Virus record (IMG/VR): IMGVR_UViG_2703718816_000011
Direction: 5' to 3' (one strand)
Source of the DNA: a virus
Taxonomy: Duplodnaviria; Heunggongvirae; Uroviricota; Caudoviricetes
DNA: 22,556 bases
Shown here: positions 3,001-6,000 of the stretch, one piece after another
Layout: each line of letters starts with the position of its first letter
Position numbering within the stretch: the stretch's first letter is position 1
Made by a program: the position numbers

Positions 3001-6000
3001 TATAGCTCACAGGATTCTGGGTACAAAAAAACCCGCGCATCGGCGGGTTAAGCAGCGTAGCAATGTAACCACTCTTATCATGATATGCAGATTTTTACGA
3101 TCGTAAACTATTTTTTCGCTGATAAAATACAGAGGTTCTCCCTCCCGGCAATTCACGCTCAACATACCGATCCATCTCAAGCCTCACTCCCAGCATCATC
3201 AGCATGCCTTCAACAATCCCCTCCGCTTTGTGAAGGCGTTTACCTATACAGGTGTCAGAGCACCCATGTTTCCGTGCCAGCGCCATGAACGTCTCCCCCA
3301 ACACGTAATAATCAACCAGCAAGTCATGCAGATCACTGTTGTTCCTGTTAAGGCGAGCCATACACCCGCATATAATCATCGCGTCATCGTCACAACACTG
3401 TGGACGTGATTTTACTTTTTCGGGGATCAGTCCCTTAAATCCGGCAGCAATGGGCGACCATGTAACATCCTCATAGTTATTTGCCGCCCATGCACCCCAG
3501 CGCTCAAGAACCTGCCGGATATCACGCATCAGTATCTTTACCCCATCCGCGATGAACCATAAGGACGCCATTGACGACGGCGTGCTTTTTCGCATCTTTA
3601 TCATCAATGTATTTTCTGACTGTGGCACGATTGCAGTTCAGTATTCTGGCGACTTCTGTCTGATTTCCCCTGGTGCAGATCAGTAATTCAGGTATCGTTT
3701 GAATTTTAGCATTCATCAAATGTTCTCCAGTTCGGTGATTTTTATCCCCACTCTACCGCCAGGCACTTTCACGCCGCGAATTACGCGAATGTCATCGAAT
3801 TGCTCGTCGTCTTCCGCAAATCCGGCGTAGATAAGAGAGTCGAGTAAACCTTTCAGGATGTTATCGAGGTCGCGACGACGGGAATCTGGTGGTTCAGCAA
3901 TAATTGTGATGCGAAGTCGTGATTTAGTGAAAATGTCTAATCTGAGTTGCCGGATGATTTGCTGTACGTCTTTTCGGTATTTCTGGCCTTTATCGCTGAT
4001 GTAGTACTGGCTTCCCCGTCTTCGCCAGTAGGTATTCACCGTCGGCGGCCAGGGAAGCACAAACTCATATTCATTCATGACTTAATTTTCCCCTCCTTCA
4101 GCAGTATCGCCTGCGTCCTGATCACGCCTTCCAGGTGGTAAAGTCTGGCGTCGTTGTTGTCGAGAATGCGAGTACGGCGATCGATTTCATTATGGCAGTC
4201 ACTACAGGCCCATGCAGCCAACAGGTCATCTGGCTTCATTCCCCTTCCGCAAATTCCAGCCATTCGGTAATGCGCCAAAACTGTAGTTTCAGGATTGCCA
4301 TTGCATACGCCGTAAATCCGTACCTGACATTCTCTGCCACGCGCTTCTTTGCGTAGGTTTGCCATCATCTTATTCCTCGTACATTGAACTATCCGGAGTG
4401 ACTATTAAATCTTGCACGACGTCTGAGCCACCGGACATCCCACAGGTGAGACGTATAATTGAAGGTTTTTACATCAGATTCGTTGGGGATTGGCCTGGGT
4501 TTATTTCGGGAGCGTTTCGTTGGAAGGTAATTGCAGTTTTCACAGACTATATCGGTAATGCTTCGTCGCTGTCGTCTCATTCATACCTCCTGTCGGTAAA
4601 TCTGACACCCTGCTCCACAGCCCAGGAAGTTGTGTACTCAATCAGGCTTGCCATACGCTTCACGCTCATCTGCGCACTGCTTTCGCGGATATTGACGTAT
4701 TCACCTTCAAGACCTGGCAAAACATCAGCTTCCTGTTTTGTCGCCACGGCATGACCGCTGATTAACAAAACTTTCCACTGTTCTGGTTTTAGCCATCTGC
4801 CGCACCACTGAACCTGTCGGGAGATATCAGCGACCATCGCGTGAAATTTGGCATTTTGATCGAGATTCCGCTTGTAATCGGTGATGCGGATCGTAACGGG
4901 TTTGTCTTTATCGAGAGTTGTTGCAAGGATGGCGTTAATGGCGAATTGTTGCTGCTGCTTACTTCGGAGGAAGATAGTCTGGTTCATTATTCCCTCTCAT
5001 TGGATTTTCCCAACAAAAAAGGAGCCGAAGCTCCTTTAGTTTCAGAATTCAAATTGTCTTGCCCGTAGTTGCGCCAGCATGCTTCTGGCCCTATGCACCA
5101 TATAGTTGGCGGGATCAAGTTTTGCTGCTTCGCGGAGCAATGTGTCGCGAGTCCGGTTGGTTATATGACGAGTCTCGTAGGCCAGATCAAACAGTTTCCC
5201 GTAGTAATCAGAGTTCAGTTCTCTCATGACGGGGTATAGCTGCTTACTGAGTTGTTGTGCTTTTTCCATCCAGAGTTGAACGTAGCAGAGTAGGATGATG
5301 TCTTCTGCTGTGAATTGCGGCTGAATATGAGGTTGTAGCGGTATAGCGCTTTTTTCAGCTTCACGGTCCAGAATATCCAATACCCAGCGACGGAACTCTT
5401 TGGCTACTGGAGTTGTTGCGAACATCGCTACCAGGTGGGCACCGCGTAGAGAGAAAATACGCACATCTTTCTCTCGTAAGCTATTGTTGATCCCGTTGAA
5501 CCTCATTTTGAGGTTGATTGACATACAAGGAGTAAACTCATCCGAATTGCGGTTGTATATCTGGGTGATTTTATCGCCGCGCGAATACTCCAGTGCAGAA
5601 GCCAAAGTCGCGGCAGTGAACCACTGTTTGCCGTCGTGTTCGATCGTTTCAAGAACGTGGGATTTGAATACGAGTTGAGTGCTCATAGTTTTATGTCCTT
5701 GTATTTTTTGTTCAGAATCCCTGTGTTCAGCAGGGCGGTCGGGTACTTGAACACCGCATACAAGAACGGCCCGTATCCTTAGCCTTGCGGCTGTTTTTCG
5801 GTATACGCGCTACCCGACCATATCTGAAAAATGGACATAAAAAATCCGCATGACTGACGGGTGCGGCTTCCGCTTGTATAGGTGTGTTCAGCACCTTGGT
5901 GCGGAATATATCCCCGTTAATGCGGATTTGTCAAATCTGGCCTTAAAACTCGAATTGTCTTGCCCGCAGGCTTTTCAGCATTGGCATGGCCCGCTGGATA

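Follow-up and report, generated by a model that had tools for sequence, protein, structure and literature searches.

A c4-like antisense RNA cassette of the sRNA-Xcc1 family that probably controls a putative antirepressor gene in a Stx-type Escherichia coli prophage

Introduction

RNA control of phage antirepressor genes is a mechanism class that has been known since 1990, through the c4 RNA of phages P1 and P7. This antisense RNA, reportedly described in that year by Citron and Schuster, is said to control icd-ant by way of the sites a1/b1 and a2/b2. A comparable arrangement is considered here in a viral stretch of 22,556 nucleotides (nt; Caudoviricetes, IMG/VR record IMGVR_UViG_2703718816_000011), called the window below, where positions 5934-5687 of the minus strand carry a promoter-like sequence, a short predicted leader and a 91-nt RNA of the Rfam family sRNA-Xcc1, just upstream of a gene for a putative antirepressor. 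The window is a lambdoid prophage of the Shiga toxin (Stx) type from Escherichia coli, and the elements under study all lie on its minus strand.

The immI region of P1 and P7 (RF01695, RF03163), as drawn in the reviews PMC12197685 and 10.1101/2020.03.17.996009, has its parts in the same order as the cassette in the window: a promoter, the words a1 and b1, a structured RNA, the words a2 and b2 at the ribosome-binding site (RBS), and the antirepressor gene. The c4 RNA itself (RF01695, clan CL00128) has a long closing stem and two hairpins, with one word in the loop of hairpin 2 and another in the joint that follows, and a CC-rich 3' tail; changes in the words create different specificities, as between P1 and P7. 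The RNA in the window is like c4 in all of these respects. A passage of PMC4919922 that cites Hartmann et al. 1995 has P1 c4 matured by RNase P. The differences are that the RNA in the window belongs to another Rfam family, outside the C4 clan, that its closing stem is shorter (9-10 base pairs, bp), that its hairpin 1 has a conserved AAUACAA internal loop, and that its leader, unlike that of immI, has an intrinsic-type terminator of its own with a conserved loop.

In the Salmonella prophage Gifsy-1, a short terminated promoter-proximal small RNA (sRNA), IsrK, is followed on the read-through transcript by a processed stable RNA (STnc1160, over 'orf45') and the antirepressor gene for AnrP; IsrK switches on AnrP translation in trans, and STnc1160 shares complementarity with IsrK (PMC4825925). 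The cassette in the window has the same plan, but its leader bears no similarity to isrK (RF01394) or c4-a1b1 (RF03163), its RNA is of the sRNA-Xcc1 family, and it needs no conserved upstream open reading frame (ORF), since in Lyz12581Vzw a 2-nt indel within the hairpin-2 loop disrupts the frame of the ORF of 55 amino acids (aa) that overlies leader and RNA (5894..5727). That ORF, which also has no Shine-Dalgarno (SD) sequence, was rejected as coding. Phage P4 immunity (CI RNA, seqA/seqB/seqC) likewise rests on a processed structured RNA with a word complementary to sites up- and downstream on the same transcript (PMC4825925); compared by description and not by sequence, it differs in its output, which is premature transcription termination of the replication operon and not occlusion of an antirepressor RBS. 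Finally, the sar RNA of P22 represses antirepressor translation by pairing at its start, but sar is transcribed from the opposite strand (PMC12197685), whereas the candidate regulator in the window lies upstream on the same strand and would pair through two short words. An earlier reading of this region from the sequence only (the sequence-only reading) had suggested a P22-like circuit, with a small RNA and operators. Its expectation of an RNA circuit at the antirepressor has been borne out to the extent that there appears to be an RNA-based control unit with its own conserved promoter and a short terminated leader; the P22 model has not, and P1/P7 immI c4 and Gifsy-1 fit instead. No operators were identified.

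The literature searched treats sRNA-Xcc1 as a virulence-linked, trans-acting sRNA of Xanthomonas and Xylella with targets not known, or lists the family without comment. It was reportedly described in 2011, by Chen and colleagues, as an integron-borne, trans-acting sRNA under the control of HrpG/HrpX. The sRNA-Xcc1 of Xanthomonas campestris belongs to the same covariance-model family as the RNA in the window and shares its leader plan (a1 hairpin, b1, AGCGG, and a CCGUCA-type terminator loop), but the integron is replaced here by the nin region of a lambdoid prophage, HrpG/HrpX is not relevant in E. coli, and in Xanthomonas no a2/b2 is visible at the downstream SD. The RNA has also been placed upstream of symE in cassettes (10.1101/2025.06.18.660453) and, by one preprint, upstream of an ORF6N gene in APSE phages. 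Save for that positional remark, a limited literature search found nothing that links sRNA-Xcc1 to c4-type control or to antirepressors, and no description of the leader, of an a/b word system for sRNA-Xcc1, or of tandem orthogonal cassettes in Stx phages. Since the coverage was limited, an earlier description is possible.

Results

The minus strand from 5934 to 5687 is, with good probability, a complete P1-immI-type, c4-like antisense RNA cassette that would set the translation of the antirepressor gene downstream. Four kinds of computed evidence bear on this: sequence features, family membership, covariation of the RNA fold, and three-way covariation of the words. The structured RNA occupies 5819-5729 and matches sRNA-Xcc1 (RF02221) over the full length of the model (1-87), scoring 68.6 bits where the gathering score is 53 (E = 8.8e-11); every Rfam scan would name it as such. 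The sequence-only reading, which placed no structured RNA between the hairpin near the promoter and the Bro-N gene, had missed it. The RNA has a 9-bp closing stem (5819-5811 with 5745-5737), a hairpin 1 (about 5807-5772) that carries the conserved AAUACAA internal loop, a hairpin 2 (5770-5753) whose loop is the hypervariable part of the family alignment, and the 3' tail GCCCU (5736-5732). Over 72 sequences, the fold covaries in the closing stem and hairpin 2: 98.3% of the cells are paired, all 13 pairs have changed on both sides, and the covariation score is 0.646, whereas shuffles give 0.212 and slid partners no more than 0.084. In most of 75 distinct RNAs, the closing stem of 9-10 bp is followed within 3-4 nt by CC(C/A), which by analogy with P1 c4 is suggestive of excision of the RNase P type.

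The RNA exposes two words, and each is complementary to a site upstream, in the leader, and to a site downstream, before the antirepressor gene. The word b' (CUUGUAU, 5764-5758) lies in the hairpin-2 loop and, if G-U pairs are allowed, extends to GUUCUUGUAU at 5767-5758, while a' (GUGUUCA, 5754-5748) spans the base of hairpin 2 plus the single-stranded stretch that joins it to the closing stem. In the leader, RNAfold predicts a hairpin (AGGUG-CUGAACA-CACCU, 5896-5880) whose loop shows the word a1 (CUGAACAC, 5891-5884), followed by b1 ((U)AUACAAG, 5880-5873), the complement of the hairpin-2 loop. Downstream, the 3' tail of the RNA is predicted to form a similar hairpin with the sequence beyond it (CCCUG-CUGAACA-CAGGG, 5735-5719); its loop shows a first copy of a2 (again CUGAACAC, 5730-5723), and tail hairpins of an analogous kind occur in other module types. 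A second copy of a2 (CUGAACA, 5715-5709) stands 4 nt upstream of b2 (AUACAAGGAC, 5704-5695), and b2 contains the SD sequence AAGGA (5700-5696), 9 nt before the ATG at 5686. The downstream site thus covers the RBS, as with c4, but the target is ant itself, with no icd-like ORF between.

The word b' can form 10 contiguous pairs with b2 (including G-U) and 7 Watson-Crick pairs with b1, or 8 with one G-U, while a' can form 7 Watson-Crick pairs with a1 (UGAACAC, 5890-5884, against 5754-5748) and 7 with the first copy of a2. For the a'b' region, the predicted duplex energy is -20.4 kcal/mol against the target and -21.5 kcal/mol against the leader. The composite pattern a-N(3-8)-b is found, over the minus strand of the whole 22.5-kb window, only at the leader and in the RBS region, and when the a'b' segment was shuffled, 253 of 100000 shuffles gave two 7-mers with complements in both leader and target. 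Read on the plus strand, the a motifs are GTGTTCAG (5884-5891 and 5723-5730), TGTTCAG (5709-5715) and, inverted, TGAACAC (5748-5754). The sequence-only reading had noted inverted motifs flanking the region; the repeats are real, but rather than merely flanking it they are the words a1, a' and a2 of a three-way complementarity, accompanied by b1, b' and b2 over the SD.

To enlarge the sample, a covariance model built from the RNAs of the window, Lyz12581Vzw and Nil2 was run over three sets of loci. Two of these were viral contigs, chosen either for a gene whose product is related to the downstream protein or for a match to the conserved terminator of the leader; the third comprised genome contigs in which the conserved internal loop of hairpin 1 has a match. 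(A degenerate genome-wide pattern search gave many chance matches in unrelated phyla, and only loci confirmed by the covariance model were used.) Three-way compensatory change is directly visible in the alignment of the three founding RNAs with their flanks. The window has AUACAAG, CUUGUAU and AUACAAGG for b1, b' and b2, with CUGAACAC, GUGUUCA and CUGAACA(C) for a1, a' and a2. Lyz12581Vzw has the same a words together with the b words UGCAAAG, CUUUGCA and UGCAAAGG. Nil2 has GCAAGUAG, CUACUUGC and UCAAGUAGG for the b words and CUCAAAA, UUUUGAG and CUCAAAA for the a words.

Thirteen representative loci yielded 22 further sRNA-Xcc1 matches above the Rfam threshold, each just upstream of a gene, and in nearly every module type the leader and the RBS region share two words only, and the RNA that separates them contains the reverse complement of both. 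Across 26 different hairpin-2 loops, the longest three-way word (shared by leader and RBS region, with its complement in the loop) averages 6.08 nt in cognate combinations and 3.36 nt in non-cognate ones, and a permutation test reached the observed sum in 0 of 20000 trials. These exact three-way word tests were used in place of a cognate versus non-cognate comparison of 'best duplex' that included the hairpin stems, which proved too noisy because of chance matches between GC-rich stems. The leader has a b word of 6 nt or longer in 75 of the 79 distinct modules, and in 44 of the 79 the word is present in the RBS region too. Among related modules, b2 overlaps or abuts the SD in 39 of 43 and ends a median of 9 nt before the start codon. 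The genes so placed are of the antirepressor type (AntA, P22_AR_N, KilA-N, Rha, ORF6N or Bro-N) in 9 of the 10 other module types tested. In one locus (L054, 3018-4748), a group II intron (RF02001, RF01998, RF00029) lies inside the antirepressor gene that follows the sRNA-Xcc1 cassette; this probably accounts for the description of ant in the GenBank record of Nil2 as 'disrupted by a putative bacterial retrotransposon'.

Upstream of the words, a sigma-70-type promoter at 5934-5905 is made up of a -35 element TTGACA (5934-5929), an 18-nt spacer and a -10 element TATATT (5910-5905). It agrees with consensus at 11 of 12 positions, is the best promoter-like site in 4500-7500 and begins 8 nt past the stop codon of the upstream gene, much as the sequence-only reading had described it. 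Promoter-like sites are not generally enriched there (5 found, 3.4 expected). The real support for the promoter comes less from its score than from its position: TTGAC-N17-18-TAnnnT stands in the same place, right before the a1 hairpin, in almost every diverged homologue, with spacers that are unrelated. Transcription would, to judge by these elements, start near 5898.

The predicted leader RNA, of about 55-60 nt (5898-5839), may be a functional analogue of IsrK. It consists of the a1 hairpin, b1, a conserved AGCGG, a terminator-like hairpin and six U residues, a plan that is identical in all homologous modules, so that in its sequence features the cassette has a promoter-proximal leader with both words that ends at an intrinsic-type terminator upstream of the c4-like RNA. 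The terminator-like hairpin (5866-5839) pairs CCGCA (5866-5862) with UGCGG (5850-5846) around an 11-nt loop with the conserved CCCGUCAGUCA, followed by A and U6 (5844-5839). The hairpin and T-run had already been recognised in the sequence-only reading; some 55-60 nt separate them from the predicted start, and 153 nt from the ATG at 5686. The stem covaries, with at least five forms among homologues (CCGCA/UGCGG, CCAAC/GUUGG, ACCCACC/GGUGGGU, AUCAC/GUGAU and ACCGU/ACGGU), and the U-run is conserved. Taken alone, the 63-nt leader folds no better than shuffles (z = -1.06); the 221-nt region from leader to start codon folds better than shuffles (z = -3.18).

The loop of the terminator (9-11 nt; 5851-5861 in the window), of the form (C)CCG[U/A][C/U]AG, and the AGCGG after b1 hardly vary between E. 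coli phages and the loci of Xanthomonas, Neisseria and Magnetococcus. No pairing partner was found for either; the loop may be a site for a protein or for Hfq, or make a tertiary contact. Pairing of the loop with the 5' strand of the closing stem of the RNA was considered and dropped, as CCCG/CGGG is the sole match and does not covary. Nor does the CGG after b1 serve to extend the b1-b' duplex into the stem of hairpin 2, since this fails where the stem has no CCG (L054, L104, L213) and CGG is still conserved there.

A further feature is an inverted repeat between the promoter spacer (AAAUCCGCAU, 5929-5920) and the 3' arm of the terminator (AUGCGGAUUU, 5851-5842). Because its 5' arm lies in the promoter spacer, that arm is absent from RNA started locally. 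For an RNA reading through from upstream (5945..5836), the predicted fold is a single long hairpin of -35.6 kcal/mol with its end at the U-run, while RNA from the local promoter has the -6 kcal/mol hairpin only; perhaps, then, the repeat makes a terminator that acts only on read-through from the upstream gene. A second promoter type (L070, L133:2024, L147:4349) has transitions in the arms, and these keep the pairing through G-U. The repeat occurs in some module types only and is lacking in many, and as it is not universal it was set aside as a core mechanism and stands as a side observation.

The gene that would be regulated (5686..5042) encodes a protein of 214 aa with Pfam domains Bro-N and P22_AR_C, by which it is a putative antirepressor. 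Upstream lies another antirepressor-type gene (6614..5943, 223 aa), and the C-terminal halves of the two proteins are nearly identical. The pair had been taken from the sequence as paralogous antirepressor genes of the Rha and Bro-N types; the Bro-N assignment stands, but for the upstream gene Pfam gives ORF6N and P22_AR_C in place of Rha. The upstream gene is the cargo of a cassette of its own, here called module 1 (6868-6668), the sRNA-Xcc1 cassette being module 2. In module 1, an isrK / c4-a1b1 leader (6868-6778, with isrK at 6855-6778) precedes a C4 antisense RNA (6752-6668). The c4-a1b1 motif over the isrK match reaches 44.2 bits in a permissive scan, below its threshold of 46.7. In that scan of 5600-7000 (E <= 5), C4 appears only at 6752-6668 and isrK/c4-a1b1 only at 6868-6778, and none of the three models has a match anywhere in 5687-5942. 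The words of module 1 are UUAGGAAC (6830-6823 and 6664-6657) and AGAAACC (6815-6809 and 6637-6631), which have their complements at C4 positions 6697-6690 and in the loop GGUUUC. Module 1 is thus a textbook module of the P1-immI / Gifsy-1 type, and the Gifsy-1 arrangement itself is present in the window. The topology of the two modules is the same and their words are different (UUAGGAAC and AGAAACC versus CUGAACA and AUACAAG), and the two antirepressors therefore appear to stand in tandem behind orthogonal RNA locks.

Tandem arrays of two or three RNA-controlled antirepressor cassettes are seen in related phages as well (L010 769-2459, L101, L002, L001). In L010, two sRNA-Xcc1 units accompany isrK and C4; L101 carries three such units, and Nil2 has isrK-C4-antA and then Xcc1-antB.

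The genes around the cassettes (NinB, YbcO, RusA, NinH, Q) are those of the nin region of a lambdoid prophage, with no integron. Over the 401 bases around the cassette, identity to Escherichia phage phiSTEC1589-Stx1c is 100%, and E. coli ST866 (NZ_CP077646) likewise has an identical locus; many Stx2a phages share the region at 88-90% identity, and phages of the Nil2/2851 type, whose module is present in many O157:H7 strains, are similar in promoter and leader only. The region matches 261 of 5426 complete E. coli genomes, where it is almost never annotated. At gathering thresholds, Rfam finds four RNAs in the window: isrK, C4 antisense RNA, sRNA-Xcc1, and STnc100 (RF02076; 1276-1065, minus strand, 142 bits), the last in the late-promoter leader region downstream of the Q antiterminator gene (3628-3095). 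Beside module 1 and divergent from it, the plus strand carries within 6796-7561 an ORF for a Gp49/HigB-like toxin (PF05973) and an overlapping HTH_3 antitoxin-like ORF (7253-7561). As listed, the Gp49/HigB-like ORF (155 aa) begins within isrK, and its real start is probably further downstream.

Discussion

How might the cassette work? From the features above we infer where transcription starts, how efficient termination is, that the RNA is processed, that the outcome is repression, and what part the leader plays. The constitutive-looking promoter would start transcription near 5898, and many transcripts would stop at the weak putative terminator at 5866-5839, giving an RNA of 55-60 nt with a1 and b1. 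Transcripts that read through would carry the 91-nt sRNA-Xcc1-family RNA (5819-5729), which probably is cut out in the way that RNase P releases P1 c4; a tRNA-like (N)CC(C/A) tail follows its closing stem. Its words b' and a' would pair with a2/b2 at 5730-5695, covering the SD and blocking translation of the antirepressor both in cis and in trans, and the RNA would thereby be an immunity factor specific for its own word pair. Since a1 and b1 of the leader would compete for the same loops of the RNA, the short leader RNA could be a decoy (an anti-antisense RNA), as IsrK is in Gifsy-1. Alternatively, the leader may offer the mature RNA a place at which to act back on termination, in the manner of P4. 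On the simplest reading, the ratio of leader to c4-like RNA would set the output of antirepressor.

Several observations weigh against this account. The Xanthomonadales members, in which a1/b1 covary with the RNA, show no a2/b2 at the downstream SD; occlusion of the RBS is therefore not universal for the sRNA-Xcc1 family. The terminator hairpin is weak (a 5-bp stem, -6.0 kcal/mol), and a terminator scan did not flag 5866-5839, because its loop is longer than 8 nt. The a word pairs over 6-7 nt only and is common to many module types, so it contributes little specificity. The alignment of 72 sequences in which the fold covaries had been fitted to the covariance model. Finally, the C4 covariance model gives no match on 5819-5729, even at E <= 5 with 5600-7000 scanned, so the likeness to c4 is one of architecture only and not of sequence: the RNA would work like c4 and yet falls outside the C4 family by the covariance-model test. 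In Xanthomonadales, the group from which sRNA-Xcc1 was first described (L194, L201, L214, L217 and L238 from Xanthomonas; also L212, L221, L235, L237, L248, L259), a1 and b1 covary with the RNA loops across species, and the sequence before the downstream start codon is conserved without a2/b2.

Control of the P4 type is the alternative that fares best, although it seems unlikely as the principal function. Here the mature c4-like RNA would pair with a1/b1 on the nascent leader and raise termination at 5866-5839, and occlusion of the RBS would be secondary. The position of b1 directly upstream of the terminator is suited to this, and GCGG (5873-5870) can pair with CCGC (5866-5863) in a small hairpin that competes with the terminator stem. 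Complementarity between leader and RNA is also the most widely conserved interaction (the 75 of 79 modules noted above), holding even where a2/b2 are absent, and there is the precedent of P4 CI/seqA/seqC (summarised in PMC4825925). The competing hairpin, however, is impossible in the common CCAAC/GUUGG type of terminator, and termination control alone leaves unexplained why b2 should sit on the SD in 39 of 43 phage modules. Termination control like that of P4 may coexist with a leader that acts as a decoy.

It is improbable that promoter and terminator simply define an independent trans-acting small RNA, with targets elsewhere in host or phage and no relation to the structured RNA downstream. 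Prophages of enterohaemorrhagic E. coli (EHEC) do encode sRNAs of 51-60 nt, variable in the 5' and conserved in the 3' part, which work as trans-acting anti-sRNAs (PMC4104026), and the leader has the same size and layout. Those Hfq-CRAC sRNAs lie at another locus, however, downstream of Q (PMC4104026), and the leader has no Rfam match of the AgvB/AsxR type. Moreover, the leader's variable 5' words in every case match loops of the RNA that comes next, and the composite a-b pattern occurs in the window nowhere but at the leader and the RBS.

Little credence is given, too, to the idea that the cassette is a cis-acting structured 5' untranslated region only (a thermometer, a riboswitch-like element or an attenuator) from which no diffusible RNA is made. 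All of the elements would be on one transcript, and the 221-nt region does fold better than its shuffles, but hypervariable loops with matched words at two separate places are typical of the specificity determinants of a diffusible immunity RNA, such as that of P1/P7. The conservation of a tRNA-like CC tail and of the closing stem points to excision, and the Gifsy-1 counterpart acts in trans. An antisense RNA like P22 sar, made from the plus strand across the antirepressor start, can be dismissed: no promoter-like site was found on the plus strand in or near 5687-5942, and the terminator-like site on that strand at 5780-5793 is the complement of the hairpin-1 tip and A-rich internal loop, most likely a by-product.

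If the cassette is indeed an antisense unit of the immI type, a bolder proposal suggests itself, which is tentative and may well prove wrong. The leader and the sRNA-Xcc1 RNA could together be a self-contained, programmable decoy/antisense switch, set by two words of 6-10 nt and existing in dozens of orthogonal versions, in Stx and other enterobacterial phages, in prophages of Pasteurellaceae and Neisseria, and in integron cassettes of Xanthomonas. Tandem cassettes with different words in Stx-type prophages would give each antirepressor its own lock, and so might decide cross-induction by co-resident or incoming phages and the release of Shiga toxin. The invariant terminator loop CCCGUCAG would, in this proposal, be the docking site of a further factor.

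Antirepressors are able to set off prophage induction even in the absence of an SOS response, and when the prophage is a Stx phage, its induction leads to toxin production. If the interpretation of the cassette as an antisense unit is true, each antirepressor of a Stx phage would be held by its own sequence-specific RNA lock, and variants of the words would define mutual immunity and induction among phages. The sRNA-Xcc1 RNA would then be re-read as a c4-type riboregulator tied to the gene immediately downstream of it, and synthetic biology could draw on the family as a ready-made stock of natural antisense/decoy pairs that are orthogonal to one another.

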